A stretch of 19,746 nucleotides of DNA from a virus (taxonomy: Duplodnaviria > Heunggongvirae > Uroviricota > Caudoviricetes). The stretch lies in the IMG/VR virus record IMGVR_UViG_2541047849_000002; one strand, written 5' to 3'. The notes beneath the pieces were generated by a model. It was not told the DNA's origin, did not search any database, and saw only the letters and a list, made by a program, of their open reading frames with translations. Shown piece after piece: positions 13,397-17,119 of this stretch. A program made the translations under genes and the position numbers. Each line of letters begins with the position of its first letter. Within the stretch, counting starts at the first letter, position 1.

Positions 13397-15823
13397 ATGG
13401 AAGTCAACAAAAAGCAGCTGGCTGACATTTTCGGTGCGAGTATCCGTACCATTCAGAACTGGCAGGAACAGGGAATGCCCGTTCTGCGAGGCGGTGGCAA
13501 GGGTAATGAGGTGCTTTATGACTCTGCCGCCGTTATAAGATGGTATGCCGAAAGGGATGCTGAAATTGAGAACGAAAAGCTGCGCCGGGAAGTTGAAGAA
13601 CTGCGGCAGGCCAGCGAGACAGATCTCCAGCCAGGGACTATTGAGTACGAACGCCATCGACTTACGCGTGCGCAGGCCGACGCACAGGAGCTGAAAAATG
13701 CCAGAGACTCCGCTGAAGTGGTGGAAACCGCATTCTGTACTTTCGTGCTGTCGCGGATCGCAGGTGAAATTGCCAGTATTCTCGACGGGATCCCCCTGTC
13801 GGTGCAGCGGCGTTTTCCGGAACTGGAAAACCGACATGTTGATTTCCTGAAACGGGATATCATCAAAGCCATGAACAAAGCAGCCGCGCTGGATGAACTG
13901 ATACCGGGGTTGCTGAGTGAATATAACAGCGCACAGGCGGCAGCGTCCTCGCAGACTGCATCGGCAAACTCCGCGACAGCAGCCAAAAAATCAGAAACCA
14001 ACGCGAAAAACAGCGAGACAGCCGCAAAGACGAGCGAAACCAACGCAAAGTCCAGCCAGACGGCAGCGAAAACCAGCGAAACGAATGCCAAAGCCAGTGA
14101 AACTGCGGCGAAAAATAGCCAGAATGCAGCAGCCGAAAGCGAGAGCGCGGCAGCCGGTTCTGCGACTGCAGCAGCTGGATCAGCAACTGCTGCGGCTAAC
14201 AGCCAGAAAGCAGCGAAGACGAGCGAAACTAACGCAAAGTCCAGCCAGACGGCAGCGAAGACCAGCGAAACAAATGCCAAAGCCAGCGAAACTGCGGCGA
14301 AAAGCAGTCAGGATGCAGCAGCCGAAAGCGAGAGTGCTGCAGCTGGTTCTGCAAGTGCGGCGGCTGCTTCTGCCACTGCATCAGCAAACAGTCAAAAAGC
14401 TGCAAAAACCAGTGAAACCAATGCAAAGACAAGCGAGACTGCAGCGGCGAACTCGGCGCAAGCATCGGCAGCAAGCCAGACAGCAGCTAAAGCAAGTGAG
14501 GATGCAGCCAGAGAGTATGCAAGCCAGGCAGCAGAGCCGTATAAATATGTCTTACAGCCACTGCCTGATGTGTGGATACCGTTTAACGATTCACTGGATA
14601 TGCTTGCTGGCTTTTCGCCTGGTTATAAGCAAATAACCGTAGGTGATGATGTTATTAAAATGCCATCCGATAAGGTTGTTAGCTTCAAACGCGCATCAGG
14701 TGCAACATACATTAATAAATCAGGTGTATTAACCGTTGCTGAAGTTGACGAACCGCGATTTGAACGAGAAGGTTTGCTGATTGAAGGACAGAGAACAAAC
14801 TATTTCAGAAATTCAAATACACCAGAAGCATGGAATAACACGGGTAGTGTGTCTGTTGAGTCGTTCGACAGTGATAAGGGGTTTAACTATGGAAGGATAA
14901 CTGTTATCAATGAAAATCCGACAGCACAAGGATATCAGGCAATTGCTGTAAACACGAATGATGCTTACACCTGCCCGGCAGGTTCTTATACGACGATATC
15001 GTGTCTGACGAAAAGTGATAATTCCCGGTGTCGTGCAAGGTTCGGAAAAATGTCTGATAATGGTGCGTTTGTTTTTCATTCAGATGCAGTTCTGGATCCT
15101 GTTACGGGAAATGTTGTTCATGGAAATAATGTGACGGTGACGGCAGAAAGAGTCGGTGAATGGTGGTTGTTTACCGCCACTCTTTTTGCAGATGCGGAAA
15201 TGATAATCAGCTCAAGATTTGAAATCCTGGCGATGCCTGGAATCAGTATTATCCCCAATGGCTCTACGTTAGATATTGCGATGCCTCAGGCGGAGATTGG
15301 GTCGTACAGGACGTCATTTATCATTACTGAAGGGGCTCCTGGCACTCGCTCCAGCGACATGGTGACAATACCTGTAAGAAACAATATTCACCGATTACCA
15401 TTCAGTGCTCTTGTTGAAGTTAATAAAAACTGGGATATCCCTCCCAGCAAATCACCATTAATCTTTAATGTTAAAGATTATCAGGAAAATGGTCTGTTCA
15501 CGCATGGATTCCGTGGTAATAATTTCTCTGATGCCGGTTCTCCTTTTATTTCTATGGGAGGGTGTAATAAATATGTGGCAACAACCCAGAGGAAAATCAT
15601 TTCAGGCTTCCGTTGTGGCGCTGATGGAGATGTTCAGGCCGTATGTAATGGTGAATTATCTGTTGCGGCAAAAACAACATGGACTTCAATTGTTCCACGG
15701 GCAGTATTGCGAATTGGAGGGCAGGGCACTAATGGGGAGTATCATCTTTTTGGTCATATCCGTAATCTGCGTATCTGGCATAAAGAATTAACTGATGCGC
15801 AAATGGGGGAGAGTATTAAATGA
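13397..15823 (+). CDS. Chimeric ORF, 808 aa: terminase small subunit Nu1 (residues 1-176) fused in frame to the shaft and C-terminal receptor-binding part of a side tail fibre
   Basis: Residues 1-176 (MEVNKKQLADIFGASIRTIQNWQEQGMPVLRGG...PGLLSEY) match lambda Nu1, which continues IEQSG-stop. Here the frame continues into Ala/Ser/Thr-rich SETNAK repeats and a C-terminal jelly-roll-like domain (...GEYHLFGHIRNLRIWHKELTDAQM). Junction at about 13922-13927. Confidence 0.8.
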   Translation: MEVNKKQLADIFGASIRTIQNWQEQGMPVLRGGGKGNEVLYDSAAVIRWYAERDAEIENEKLRREVEELRQASETDLQPGTIEYERHRLTRAQADAQELKNARDSAEVVETAFCTFVLSRIAGEIASILDGIPLSVQRRFPELENRHVDFLKRDIIKAMNKAAALDELIPGLLSEYNSAQAAASSQTASANSATAAKKSETNAKNSETAAKTSETNAKSSQTAAKTSETNAKASETAAKNSQNAAAESESAAAGSATAAAGSATAAANSQKAAKTSETNAKSSQTAAKTSETNAKASETAAKSSQDAAAESESAAAGSASAAAASATASANSQKAAKTSETNAKTSETAAANSAQASAASQTAAKASEDAAREYASQAAEPYKYVLQPLPDVWIPFNDSLDMLAGFSPGYKQITVGDDVIKMPSDKVVSFKRASGATYINKSGVLTVAEVDEPRFEREGLLIEGQRTNYFRNSNTPEAWNNTGSVSVESFDSDKGFNYGRITVINENPTAQGYQAIAVNTNDAYTCPAGSYTTISCLTKSDNSRCRARFGKMSDNGAFVFHSDAVLDPVTGNVVHGNNVTVTAERVGEWWLFTATLFADAEMIISSRFEILAMPGISIIPNGSTLDIAMPQAEIGSYRTSFIITEGAPGTRSSDMVTIPVRNNIHRLPFSALVEVNKNWDIPPSKSPLIFNVKDYQENGLFTHGFRGNNFSDAGSPFISMGGCNKYVATTQRKIISGFRCGADGDVQAVCNGELSVAAKTTWTSIVPRAVLRIGGQGTNGEYHLFGHIRNLRIWHKELTDAQMGESIK
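14030..14407 (+). repeat. Tandem duplication of a 189-bp (63-codon) unit within the tail-fibre shaft, with partial related units on both sides (about 13975-14480)
   Basis: Unit 1 at 14030-14218 and unit 2 at 14219-14407 are near-identical (TSETNAKSSQTAAKTSETNAKASETAAK...ANSQKAAK). Confidence 0.85.
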
Positions 15824-16101
15824 AAGATTTAACACTCAAATTTGCAGACAGGGCCGACTTTTCGGCCTTTATGGAGAGTATTGGCTATTATGATGACGAG
15901 TCGATGCAGGATGATATTCTTATTGACGTGATAGGTAACGTGTACAAAGAAACCGGAGAACTGACTGAAGATGGCGAACCGGTATGTGTTAAGGAAGACG
16001 GATATTTTGTAAACGTGCGCATCATTAATGATGTAAAAAAATCGTCAATATTCGATAAATACGCGGTTGTTGTTGAGCATCAACTTCGTGGCTGGATGTG
16101 A
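15820..16101 (+). CDS. Small acidic hypothetical protein, 93 aa, translationally coupled to the tail-fibre ORF
   Basis: ATGA start/stop overlap with the upstream ORF. About 20 Asp/Glu against about 10 Lys/Arg. No family recognised. Confidence 0.5.
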   Translation: MKDLTLKFADRADFSAFMESIGYYDDESMQDDILIDVIGNVYKETGELTEDGEPVCVKEDGYFVNVRIINDVKKSSIFDKYAVVVEHQLRGWM

Positions 16102-16110
16102 GGGAGACAA

Positions 16111-16815
16111 ATGGCTACATCGACAGTAATTCCAGGAGATATCACCACGCTAAAGGGAGATGTCAGTAAAACTAAGGAAGATATTTCCTCAATTAACGGA
16201 AAAGTATCAACGCTTCAGACTGGTATGACCAGTGCAAAGCAGGATATCAGCACCAGATACACAAAAACTGAAGTTGATAATAAGCTGAAAAACAAACTGG
16301 AAGTGAACGATCTGGAAAGCGGTCGTTATGGTGGAGATTTTTACCCGTTGACTGGCCGTGAAGCGTTTTATATGTGGGGATTGGGCACGACTACAGCGGC
16401 GGCAAACCTTTATCTTAATCCTGACCCTGCAATTTCGTCTGTACTGCGGTCAACATCGTCTATTCGCTATAAACATTCAGTAGAGACGATAGATTCAGAG
16501 CACGCCGATCTCATTTTCAGGATGCGCCCTGTGTGGTACAGGTCGCAATGCGAAAATGACAGGCGTGACTGGGGATTCTACGGATTGATTGCCGAGGAAG
16601 TAGGAGAAATTGCCCCTCAGTTTGTACACTGGCGACCAGCTAACGAAGATGATGCTCCTGAAGCTATTTCCAGCAATGGCCTTGTTGCCGAAGGTGTAAT
16701 GTACGAACGTCTGGTTGTTCCACTGATTCACCATATCCAGAAGCTGACTGAAAGAGTTGATGAACTTGAGTCAGAATTAAAGTTGTTATCCGTTTCCCGA
16801 AGCGATATCGGATAA
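16111..16815 (+). CDS. Tail-fibre-like protein, 234 aa: coiled N-terminal segment plus C-terminal intramolecular-chaperone (peptidase S74-type) domain
   Basis: GAGGGAGA Shine-Dalgarno. The C-terminal half (SSIRYKHSVETIDSEHADLIFRMRPVWYR...WGFYGLIAEEVGEIAPQFVHW...LVVPLIHHIQKLTERVDELESEL) follows the pattern of the self-cleaving chaperone domain of endosialidase/tail fibres, with Ser and Lys five residues apart. Confidence 0.55.
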   Translation: MATSTVIPGDITTLKGDVSKTKEDISSINGKVSTLQTGMTSAKQDISTRYTKTEVDNKLKNKLEVNDLESGRYGGDFYPLTGREAFYMWGLGTTTAAANLYLNPDPAISSVLRSTSSIRYKHSVETIDSEHADLIFRMRPVWYRSQCENDRRDWGFYGLIAEEVGEIAPQFVHWRPANEDDAPEAISSNGLVAEGVMYERLVVPLIHHIQKLTERVDELESELKLLSVSRSDIG

Positions 16816-16825
16816 AGGAGGAGTA

Positions 16826-17119
16826 ATGGATATAACACCTTTCCTTCATGCGCTTTGTGCTGTGGCTGCGCAGCTACTGATTGGTCTTTTTACCGGGAAC
16901 TGGGCTTACGGGGCGATAGCCGGTTGTACGTTCTTCATTGCGCGTGAACACACCCAGGCAGAATATCGCTGGATCGAAATGTTCGGGCATGGCAAGCGAA
17001 TGAATATGCCGTGGTGGGGCGGTTTTGATACACGAGCATGGGATGTGGCAAGCCTGATGGATTTTGCTGTGCCGGTGGTGGCGTGTCTGCTGGTCTGGCT
17101 GTTGGTTAATCGTGGGTGA
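16826..17119 (+). CDS. Small integral membrane protein, 97 aa, two predicted transmembrane helices
   Basis: Strong AAGGAGG Shine-Dalgarno. Hydrophobic segments LHALCAVAAQLLIGLF and FAVPVVACLLVWLLV. No family recognised. Confidence 0.5.
   Translation: MDITPFLHALCAVAAQLLIGLFTGNWAYGAIAGCTFFIAREHTQAEYRWIEMFGHGKRMNMPWWGGFDTRAWDVASLMDFAVPVVACLLVWLLVNRG

Follow-up and report, generated by a model that had tools for sequence, protein, structure and literature searches.

A swappable side-tail-fibre cassette as the probable source of three genes downstream of stf in a cryptic prophage of Escherichia coli

Lambda-type phages normally carry a tail fibre assembly gene, tfa, directly behind the side tail fibre gene, stf, and the locus described here raises the question of what can stand in its place. 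The window, that is, the whole stretch of DNA analysed (19,746 nucleotides, IMG/VR record IMGVR_UViG_2541047849_000002), contains an 808-aa fibre ORF (13397-15823, plus strand), followed on the same strand by ORFs of 93 aa (15820-16101), 234 aa (16111-16815) and 97 aa (16826-17119). The explanation that best accounts for the whole, to which we assign a probability of about 60%, is a swappable Stf cassette with a fibre partner, a short fibre and an independent membrane protein.

Gene layout and the fibre cassette

The window is a DLP12-type cryptic (dead) prophage of E. coli that adjoins appY/ompT, and its DLP12-type context genes comprise lysis genes, bor/iss, nu1, appY and ompT. Here it shares 99.9% identity with the sequence of E. 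coli B REL606, and the same holds for many other strains. The three ORFs are co-oriented with the fibre ORF and have exactly the coordinates given in a preliminary description of this DNA, and the translation signals proposed there were located in the sequence. The fibre TGA (15821-15823) overlaps the ATG of the 93-aa gene (15820) as ATGA, and good Shine-Dalgarno sequences precede both the 234-aa gene (GAGGGAGA, ahead of ATG 16111) and the 97-aa gene (AAGGAGG, ahead of ATG 16826). No plus-strand promoter or terminator was found within the three-gene module, which thus appears to be co-transcribed with the fibre. To judge from their conservation, the three ORFs are genuine genes and did not arise by chance, since the exact length of the 93-aa protein is kept in hundreds of protein variants, the 97-aa family comprises more than 450 clusters, and homologues of all three proteins are present in sequenced, plaque-forming phages.

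In the fibre ORF (13397..15823, plus strand) the terminase small subunit Nu1 is fused in frame to the side tail fibre Stf, a feature that had been overlooked. The Nu1 part covers aa 1-176 (nt 13397-13924, plus strand; Pfam Phage_Nu1 at aa 1-164, E=4e-100), and the Stf part is missing its first 149 residues; residues 177-808 of the fusion match, with 100% identity, residues 150-781 of the Stf of REL606, where it is a separate protein. Repeats of 21 nt and 189 nt are found in the shaft, at 13975-14446. Since the tail-attachment end of Stf was lost in the Nu1 fusion and the prophage is without any head or tail genes, the module is unable to build a virion here, and the fibre genes in the window are relics.

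Stf ends in a lectin-like domain of ~420 aa (aa 389-808; 14561..15820, plus strand) that is homologous across seven fibres from five phage groups. It includes a part resembling the GTA head spike fibre (aa 461-652 of the ORF; NCBIfam GTA_spike_fiber, E=4e-18) and a weak Laminin_G_3-like end (aa 746-802), the Laminin_G_3 match being present in five of the seven fibres, with a best E=2e-5. The profile built from the seven fibres matched the RcGTA head spike fibre Rcc01080 (PDB 6tb9) with E=2.7e-17. Unlike in Rcc01080, the domain in the window is carried on the end of a long tail fibre shaft, and the Laminin_G_3-like part comes after it; we know of no partner of the 93-aa type for the GTA spike fibre protein. 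On these matches, the end of Stf is probably a jelly-roll of the lectin-like type, akin to the RcGTA head spike fibre, and it has no built-in chaperone.

Comparison with PhiR49 reveals a mosaic. The Stf shaft is 88-98% identical and the last 19 aa are 95% identical, and identity falls to 22-62% only in aa 454-789 of the lectin-like domain. This variable centre (aa ~454-789) probably decides the specificity of the fibre. Behind it, the 93-aa, 234-aa and 97-aa genes are again 91%, 95% and 93% identical to those of PhiR49. Just 3' of the module, at 17139..17249 (plus strand), lies the 3' remnant of a lambda-type tfa gene, annotated by RefSeq in the identical stretch of REL606 as 'tail fiber assembly protein, missing N-terminus'. 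The preliminary description had recognised no Tfa among the three proteins, and the only trace of tfa is indeed this remnant downstream of the module. Judged by its sequence and position, the remnant is the scar of a cassette replacement, retained from a Stf/Tfa arrangement like that of lambda. The three genes would then represent the 3' portion of a mobile cassette for the side tail fibre, which probably replaced the usual Stf-tip/Tfa pair of a DLP12-type lambdoid prophage.

The 93-aa acidic protein

As in lambda (Stf/Tfa), Mu (S/U) and P2 (H/G), a small gene lies directly 3' of the fibre gene. Its 93-aa product is strongly acidic, as originally remarked (20 Asp/Glu versus 10 Lys/Arg, pI 4.31), and matched phrog_1361, a PHROG of unknown function (E=2e-46), with no match in Pfam or NCBIfam. 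A divergent Tfa is ruled out, no Tfa profile of Pfam, NCBIfam or PHROGs having been matched; Tfa is also about twice as large. The AlphaFold2 model has an alpha/beta fold (pLDDT 82.8) with a poorly modelled C-terminal 25 residues, and a fold search returned no specific match and, among its matches, no known fibre chaperone. A full-library search found no credible fusions of the family, which points to a stand-alone protein.

Homologues occur in 179 phage records. In every locus inspected (phage 21, PhiR49_1, PeterMerian, phiE31-2, tinuso, SECphi27, JenP2, VogelGryff, L6jm, IrisVonRoten and LL12) the gene is directly 3' of the fibre gene and overlaps or abuts its stop codon. The ~420-aa C-terminal domain is common to all seven fibres that were aligned, a set outside which stand those of VogelGryff, phiE31-2, tinuso and SECphi27. 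The pair of fibre and small protein is found in lambdoid, T1-like, T5-like, rV5-like and Queuovirinae phages. We infer from this linkage that the 93-aa protein is devoted to the lectin-domain fibre type as its assembly or adaptor protein, and the linkage would equally arise from adjacency alone. Translated in step with Stf, it could act in trans as a partner in the place of Tfa; most likely it would aid the folding or trimerisation of the C-terminal end of the fibre, and it may remain bound to the fibre as an adaptor.

A close parallel comes from IrisVonRoten (Bas32), a T5-like phage in which gp22 is a proximal fibre with a galectin-like C-terminal domain and gp24 a T-shaped distal fibre, the two having been modelled as parts of one fibre (PMC11990801). 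The gene order is the same as in the window: a first fibre gene (gp22), a small gene of 92 aa (gp23) and then the gene of a second fibre (gp24). Over 687 residues Stf and gp22 share 43% identity, and between the 93-aa protein and gp23 the figure is 38%. The window differs in being a lambdoid prophage element with a membrane-protein gene appended.

This arrangement also admits, as a tentative alternative, that the 93-aa protein is a structural connector and not a chaperone, forming a 'knee' that joins the proximal Stf to the distal fibre, comparable to T4 gp35. In IrisVonRoten, L6jm, JenP2, PeterMerian and the window, its gene has the proximal fibre gene immediately on one side and the distal fibre gene on the other, translational coupling suggests a fixed stoichiometry with Stf, and gp23 is annotated as 'tail fiber protein'. 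However, phage 21 and many further lambdoid phages retain the gene although a distal fibre gene is missing behind it (ev207, 1H12 and 4A7 likewise retain it without a second fibre), and the BASEL authors, who modelled gp22 with gp24, do not discuss the small gp23 or describe it as a component (PMC11990801). An assembly or adaptor role remains our preferred reading. The acidic composition and low pI would also suit a DNA-mimic anti-restriction protein, as first suggested, a function that we disfavour and regard as scarcely tenable.

The 234-aa short fibre

The 234-aa protein had been described as a short coiled segment with an S74-like self-cleaving chaperone domain, and this description holds. 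A putative N-terminal docking peptide (aa 1-15, 16111-16155) common to other downstream fibres is followed by a repeat shaft (aa 16-65), a tip (aa 66-116, 16306-16458) and an S74 intramolecular chaperone domain (aa 117-234, 16459-16812), all on the plus strand. Pfam Peptidase_S74 (PF13884) matched aa 116-172 with 27.2 bits against a cut-off of 22. SSIRYK marks the start of the domain, and self-cleavage is predicted at S116/S117 (16456-16461), with K121 at 16471-16473; S116 and K121 are invariant among six homologues. As in the C-terminal chaperones of endosialidase and T5 pb1, the domain is C-terminal in a fibre protein, begins with a Ser-x4-Lys pair and has a helical coiled-coil tail; unlike in these, its passenger is unusually short (116 residues).

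A second parallel is provided by the T5-like phages DT57C and DT571/2, which have branched L-shaped tail fibres made of LtfA and LtfB (PMC4728585, PMC10713586). In the alignment with DT57C LtfA (8hqz_d, E=6e-7), TSSIRYK in the S74 part of the 234-aa protein falls on TSGIEYK. The likeness extends to one fibre protein attaching to the virion via another and to C-terminal self-cleaving chaperone domains on both. In contrast to the window, no small gene separates ltfA from ltfB in DT57C (gp108, gp107), and the domain at the end of LtfA is of the S74 and not of the lectin-like type.

The N-terminal peptide M-x-T-x-T-V/I-I-P-x-D-I-T-x-L-K is common to downstream fibres of 231-576 aa that otherwise differ. 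IrisVonRoten gp24 has the same peptide and a terminal S74 chaperone domain; compared with gp24, the 234-aa protein is pared down to a minimum and has neither of the two large domains that bind receptors. Homology and catalytic residues are established, and by sequence the protein is a complete short fibre and not a fragment. It would form a second, short trimeric fibre, docking onto the Stf end through its conserved N-terminal peptide; the S74 domain would drive trimer folding and then be cut off after Ser116, leaving a mature fibre of 116 residues.

The small size of this mature part has a bearing on whether the protein binds a receptor at all. The tip and S74 domain are 57-63% conserved between lambdoid prophages and Drexlerviridae, shaft length alone being variable. 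Such conservation is uncommon in a tip that binds a receptor, and it agrees with a structural or chaperone role too. The GenBank annotation reads 'putative lateral tail fiber chaperone', and in PeterMerian and VogelGryff the protein is annotated as a chaperone. A trans-acting chaperone or cap for Stf nevertheless seems unlikely: the N-terminal peptide is also present on long, clearly receptor-binding distal fibres such as gp24, phage 21 has the same kind of Stf without the 234-aa gene, and the usual account of S74 domains has them act in cis, on the polypeptide that carries them.

The suggestion that the 234-aa and 97-aa ORFs are pieces of a single, longer fibre gene that was disrupted, in keeping with the alignment of the 234-aa protein to the last 238 positions of the 1385-position PHROG profile phrog_3299, is very improbable: the 234-aa gene has its own ATG and Shine-Dalgarno site, its N-terminal peptide is typical of separate distal fibres, full-length homologues (215-235 aa) occur in the four virulent Drexlerviridae inspected (phiE31-2, tinuso, PeterMerian and SECphi27) with near-full-length ones in many more phage records, and the 97-aa family has no relationship to fibres and is found by itself behind genes of other types.

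The 97-aa membrane protein

The last gene of the module encodes a protein of the phrog_1443 family with both ends hydrophobic. The preliminary description correctly saw a membrane protein and counted two transmembrane helices; AlphaFold2 predicts three (aa 4-23, 26-52 and 74-96; pLDDT 94.9), and we read it as an independent three-helix membrane protein outside the fibre. Across E. coli, Aeromonas and Comamonas identity is 60%, and 23 positions are invariant among 59 diverse sequences (Enterobacterales, Aeromonas, Comamonas), with a near-invariant segment at aa 39-72 (AREHTQAEYRWI...G.GKR.NMPWWGGFD.R.W). Of the 5426 complete E. coli genomes, 1900 (35%) carry the gene, in up to seven copies per genome. 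It ends fibre or spike operons of lambdoid, P22-like and P2-like phages, where unrelated fibres, spikes or Tfa precede it, and of Comamonas and enterobacterial prophages; temperate phages of all three tail types carry it.

This distribution suggests an inner-membrane protein encoded last in the fibre/spike operon of temperate phages, perhaps with a lysogeny-linked envelope function such as blocking DNA entry of superinfecting phages. Like T4 Imm, P22 SieA, HK97 gp15 and Cor, it is a small membrane protein of temperate phages, encoded near tail genes, with no evident role in virion structure. It differs from these in sequence, and Pfam, NCBIfam, PHROGs and PADLOC returned no known exclusion or defence family. 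Superinfection exclusion would be a plausible role. Receptor masking, also proposed initially, fits poorly with the 60% identity between E. coli, Aeromonas and Comamonas, a cross-genus conservation far above expectation for a receptor-specific factor.

A role in the lytic cycle, holin-like, in lysis timing or during fibre production, would not involve protection of the lysogen. Class I holins also have ~100 aa and three helices, the gene lies at the end of a late operon with no promoter of its own detected, and each prophage keeps its own copy. A 237-kb Aeromonas phage has a full-length, diverged homologue away from its fibre genes, and if this phage is virulent, a role confined to lysogeny is weakened. 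We nonetheless judge a lytic role improbable. The protein is without the charged C-terminal tail typical of holins, its loop is unusually conserved, and a lysis cassette, essD/rrrD/rzpD, is already present in the prophage. The gene is missing from virulent phages that share the fibre module, and in the virulent phage HC6 it has decayed to a remnant.

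Organisation of the module within a decayed prophage

The three open reading frames that the preliminary description placed behind the tail fibre gene lie where it put them, all on the plus strand, and encode proteins of 93 aa (15820-16101), 234 aa (16111-16815) and 97 aa (16826-17119). The ATGA overlap reported to couple the stop codon of the fibre gene (13397-15823, plus strand, 808 aa) to the start of the 93-aa gene is present, as are the Shine-Dalgarno sites, GAGGGAGA before the 234-aa start and AAGGAGG before the 97-aa start. A simple, crude sigma-70 scan of 15500-17900 found no plus-strand promoter-like or terminator-like site, and the three genes therefore look co-transcribed with the fibre. 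No RNA family was returned by Rfam for the whole window. Taken together, what the preliminary description observed is confirmed, and its interpretation is partly right.

The region 15700-17300 is 99.9% identical to Escherichia coli B REL606, E. coli C and many other strains. The RefSeq annotation of REL606 and GF4 identifies these loci as a DLP12-type cryptic lambdoid prophage, with the gene order quuD, porin, the essD/rrrD/rzpD lysis genes, bor/iss, nu1, tail-fibre genes, appY, ompT and envY. In REL606, Nu1, a remnant of J and a side tail fibre (Stf) of 781 aa are three separate genes. In the 808-aa ORF of the window, Nu1 is fused in frame to Stf from Stf residue 150; Pfam Phage_Nu1 matches aa 1-164 of this ORF (E=4e-100), and the Nu1-derived part extends to aa 176. 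The fusion arose by a further deletion in the window, beyond the REL606 state, which took out every head and tail gene, and none of these genes was found in the window prophage. Since the first 149 residues of Stf have been replaced by Nu1, the fibre ORF of the window is unable to attach to a tail. The fibre genes in the window are relics of a dead prophage. The same prophage is in differing, less extreme states of deletion in REL606 and GF4, where Nu1, the J remnant and Stf are kept apart.

An intact form of Stf is present in PhiR49_1 (PV340569.1), a functional lambdoid phage recovered on ECOR13, which carries the same module of Stf and the 93-, 234- and 97-aa genes. In this phage the module is followed by ybcY, a tfa remnant and an omptin (ompT-like) gene, within the phage genome (9372-10279 of its comparison locus, L007; compare 18793-19746 in the window). 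DLP12-type phages with ompT cargo may still be active in natural E. coli.

The families of the 93-aa and 97-aa proteins are widespread, conserved and uncharacterised, and we found no paper discussing either of them, including in the literature on phage 21, on ECOR13 prophages and on exclusion genes near tail fibres. The two small proteins are not mentioned in the papers on phage DT57C, the tail fibre atlas or lambda STF engineering. The PADLOC defence models gave nothing relevant. The Tai/Ati tail-assembly-interference systems (PMC11364771), which lie upstream of the packaging module, are unrelated to the window locus.

The lectin-like fibre end and its proposed 93-aa partner

A C-terminal domain of about 420 residues (aa 389-808 of the window Stf) is common to all seven of the upstream fibres aligned, the weakest pair being the window and the rV5-like phage LL12 (E=8e-58). 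The profile of this domain matches the solved head spike fibre Rcc01080 of RcGTA (6tb9, E=2.7e-17), its NCBIfam name is GTA_spike_fiber, and its end bears a weak likeness to Laminin_G_3. An S74 domain is absent from the Stf fibre itself. In the T5-like phage IrisVonRoten (Bas32), the equivalent part of gp22 was described by the BASEL authors as a galectin-like domain jutting from the fibre end (PMC11990801).

Variability was assessed against PhiR49_1, the functional ECOR-derived phage with the same gene order as the window. The Stf shafts of the two are 88-98% identical and the last 19 residues 95%, with only 22-62% identity over Stf aa 454-789; the 93-, 234- and 97-aa proteins are 91%, 95% and 93% identical, respectively. 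This confinement of the drop to aa 454-789 argues that the lectin-like domain is an exchangeable specificity element. Judging from the pattern of identity, it is flanked by putative recombination arms that are conserved, and the three small genes would be conserved service genes. The conserved Stf segments are DEPRFEREGLLIEGQRTNY and RIGGQ..HLFGH.RN.RIWHKELTD. The Stf shaft (13975-14446) is built of Ala/Ser/Thr-rich units of 21 nt (7 residues) within a higher-order repeat of 189 nt, present in 2.3 copies with an 83% match.

The 93-aa protein matches only PHROGs without known function, phrog_1361 (E=2e-46) and phrog_18574; there was no Pfam or NCBIfam match at E<=0.1, and nothing in PADLOC or in a sequence search of the solved structures of the PDB. 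Homologues were found by tblastn in 179 phage records, and their carriers include lambdoid phages, Drexlerviridae, Queuovirinae, T5-like Markadamsvirinae and rV5-like myoviruses. The gene lies directly 3' of a tail fibre gene, overlapping or abutting its stop codon, in each of the 11 other loci opened, and it is retained in phage 21 and many relatives without a second fibre gene. A search of 1.8 billion representative proteins with the family profile gave stand-alone small proteins only, barring a few long matches. The latter are proteins with PKD or TPR repeats in which only short stretches match; we judged them not to be domain fusions, the likeness being at the compositional or motif level (DGxYxVxV).

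Fibres that lack an internal chaperone generally need a helper, such as Tfa, gp38 or gpU, to start the folding of the trimer from the C-terminus. In our reading, the 93-aa protein is the dedicated trans-acting partner of the fibre, in place of the tail fibre assembly protein Tfa. It may depart after assembly, as a chaperone, or may stay bound as an adaptor. Given that it must serve very different lectin domains, the conserved Stf segments flanking them are its likely contact. Should assembly depend on the 93-aa protein, chimeric fibres of this type would fail in its absence.

Two other identities for this protein fare less well. A divergent Tfa would be found directly downstream of a fibre gene, as the 93-aa gene is, and would be expected among the relatives of lambda Tfa, Mu U and P2 G; the 93-aa protein has no match to a Tfa profile, which makes this identity unlikely. 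Tfa is thus missing from the module, in which the preliminary description had not recognised it: the usual protein is gone and only a 3' scar of its gene is left behind, a tfa remnant at 17139-17249, just after the module, which RefSeq lists in REL606 as a tail fibre assembly protein without an N-terminus. The acidic composition first noted for the 93-aa protein is real (20 acidic versus 10 basic residues, pI 4.31), and the DNA-mimic or anti-restriction role proposed on that ground is contradicted by both fold and gene context, given that the DNA-mimicking fold with an extended acidic array (Ocr, ArdA) was not found and that the gene is coupled to the late fibre gene in every locus examined, rather than being an early independent one.

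The 234-aa protein as a putative distal fibre

The 234-aa protein was correctly recognised as a short fibre-like protein with an S74 domain, a well-known kind of domain. Pfam PF13884 (Peptidase_S74) matches aa 116-172 above threshold, with 27.2 bits against a cut-off of 22, over profile positions 1-57 of 58. The closest solved relative is the C-terminus of LtfA of the T5-like phage DT57C (8hqz_d), in which TSGIEYK aligns with TSSIRYK of the 234-aa protein. S116 and K121, at the start of the domain (TS/SIRYK), are invariant in 6 homologues; a five-residue spacing of Ser and Lys is the rule known from the S911/K916 pair of endosialidase. The domain forms the C-terminal end of the protein (aa 117-234), and within it we read the tail at aa 199-228 (LVVPLIHHIQKLTERVDELESELKLL) as probably helical, from its heptad-like sequence. 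The 234-aa protein thus belongs with the S74 intramolecular chaperones on every testable feature; autoproteolytic release is predicted, and a cut after S116 would leave a mature chain of 116 residues.

Of the 5426 complete E. coli genomes, 746 carry the gene. It is not a fragment of a longer one: at the corresponding position, the virulent Drexlerviridae phiE31-2, tinuso, PeterMerian and SECphi27 have homologues of 215-235 aa with 57-63% identity.

The first 15 residues of the protein, MATSTVIPGDITTLK, recur at the N-terminus of proteins encoded 3' of the 92-aa gene in JenP2 (348 aa) and VogelGryff (388 aa), and likewise in a 576-aa protein of L6jm and in gp24 of IrisVonRoten (574 aa), the IrisVonRoten-type peptide reading MVTKTVIPTDITKLK. 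Outside this peptide and the C-terminal S74 domain, these four proteins are unrelated to the 234-aa protein. Where fibres are otherwise exchangeable, a peptide common to their N-termini usually marks an attachment module, and probably does so here. The window Stf is 43% identical to IrisVonRoten gp22 over 687 aa (E=3e-147), with a lectin-like end on both, and the second fibre ends in an S74 domain in both phages. In IrisVonRoten, gp22 and gp24 were modelled with AlphaFold-Multimer as the proximal and distal parts of one fibre, and gp24 has been implicated in recognition of the O16 O-antigen (PMC11990801). In view of the peptide held in common with gp24 and of this published model, the 234-aa protein is best read as a putative minimal distal fibre for the same socket as gp24. 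Lateral fibres in two parts are already known from DT57C, by genetics and cryo-EM (LtfA/LtfB; PMC4728585, PMC10713586), and from the BASEL predictions. The window would be a lambdoid, minimal version of that layout, with a proposed attachment between the two segments; the window Stf, unlike a proximal fibre of the gp22/gp24 type, would be unable to attach to a tail, and the prophage has no tail genes.

The cassette appears to supply a portable socket, made of the lectin-ended fibre and its 93-aa partner, into which differing distal fibres with an N-terminal peptide of about 15 residues seem to plug, across siphoviruses and myoviruses. Receptor-binding modules set the host range of phages and are swapped by engineers in phage therapy and in DNA-delivery particles. 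The value of the finding lies in this socket-and-plug logic and in the two orphan families, rather than in the locus itself.

A rival reading makes the 234-aa protein a chaperone or cap, as some GenBank records have it. It is kept alive by the tip (aa 66-116), which is conserved, unlike typical receptor-binding tips, variation being found only in the number of shaft repeats; the N-terminal peptide and the gp22/gp24 model favour the distal fibre. The length of the shaft (aa 16-65; 16156-16305) varies among phages by whole units of the DVSTLKQDV kind.

The 97-aa predicted membrane protein

The 97-aa protein was described as a membrane protein with two transmembrane helices. The first part stands as a prediction of localisation, given the hydropathy maxima at its ends (aa 5-24 and 76-95); the number of helices does not, as the AlphaFold2 model (pLDDT 94.9) has three, at aa 4-23, 26-52 and 74-96. 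The protein belongs to phrog_1443, of unknown function according to PHROGs, and its family forms more than 450 clusters when grouped at 90% identity, every one of them named hypothetical; the members come from Escherichia, Salmonella, Enterobacter, Citrobacter, Leclercia, Aeromonas and Comamonas. Identity of 60% is kept as far as Comamonas. Among 59 diverse members, 23 positions are invariant, concentrated in AREHTQAEYRWI and NMPWWGGFD; H8 and Q16 (both helix 1) and P83 (helix 3) are also invariant, C34 and C87 are near-invariant, and the rest of the helices varies. The fold search was uninformative, a sequence search of solved structures gave no match, and Pfam, NCBIfam and PADLOC gave no significant match, so that the protein falls in no described exclusion or defence family (Imm, Cor, Sie and the PADLOC models).

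Of the 5426 complete E. coli genomes, 1900 carry the gene, at 3885 places in all (57 on plasmids), with a median of two copies and up to 7 per genome; among laboratory strains, REL606 has it as ECB_RS02705, and BL21(DE3) has two copies. It directly follows the 92-aa gene in phage 21 and its relatives. In the P22-like JEP4 it overlaps the 3' end of the tailspike gene and is followed by int, and in the myovirus phiHAP-1 it overlaps the end of tfa before the sheath gene, which we take to be the Z/fun position of P2. In prophages of Comamonas and of enterobacteria, a few small genes separate it from an upstream J or fibre gene. One fixed fibre type upstream was ruled out, as the upstream proteins are mutually unrelated, and the gene is not tied to the fibre type of the window. 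It is absent from virulent phages with the fibre/93-aa/S74 module.

This distribution fits a function useful to temperate phages, for example exclusion or envelope conversion, and conservation as high as this points to a conserved target rather than to a strain-specific receptor. Action in the lytic cycle is conceivable, given that no promoter of its own was detected in the crude scan and that a diverged homologue exists in Aeromonas phage PS1. With a probability of roughly 0.3, we tentatively propose a joint reading in which the 97-aa protein is the founder of a new, very common class of phage inner-membrane effectors and the 93-aa protein is a new fibre chaperone or adaptor, unrelated to Tfa. 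The target of the 97-aa protein would be a conserved component of the envelope, engaged by the invariant loop AREHTQAEYRWI...NMPWWGGFD together with the intra-helix polar residues H8, Q16, C34 and C87; the outcome might be a block to the entry of superinfecting phage DNA, or a change to a lipid or glycan carrier of the envelope. Its gene would be spread as the last of the fibre operon by temperate siphoviruses, myoviruses and podoviruses that infect gamma- and beta-proteobacteria, and the 93-aa protein would turn the lectin-ended fibre into a universal socket that takes plug-in distal fibres. As a candidate for a new envelope or exclusion function encoded by prophages, the 97-aa protein is cheap and well defined.

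Several homologous loci show further features. The homologue of the 237-kb phage PS1 (MN032614.2, locus L022, 2929-3192) has 87 aa, keeps RE..QAE.R and KR.N.PW, and adjoins a helicase/terminase gene, away from the fibre genes. In the virulent phage HC6 (OL362274.1, locus L023), what is left of the 97-aa gene at 2965-3120 (...RRANIPWWGGFDWRAWDLPSLLD), frameshifted and without annotation, lies directly 3' of an S74-ended spike/fibre gene of 859 aa; this looks like a cassette acquired from a prophage whose membrane gene then began to decay. In a prophage of Comamonas testosteroni (CP043573.1, locus L013, 1-6521), a J-like tail tip protein of 2520 aa is followed by five small co-oriented ORFs of 72, 100, 125, 99 and 183 aa, the second being the 97-aa homologue; for the other four there was no match to a family of known function, and a lysis cassette was rejected since no lysis families were found around the homologue. 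In phage 21 (OL657228.1, locus L003, 6386-9835), the 97-aa gene is directly followed by a complete sitABCD iron/manganese transporter operon on the other strand.
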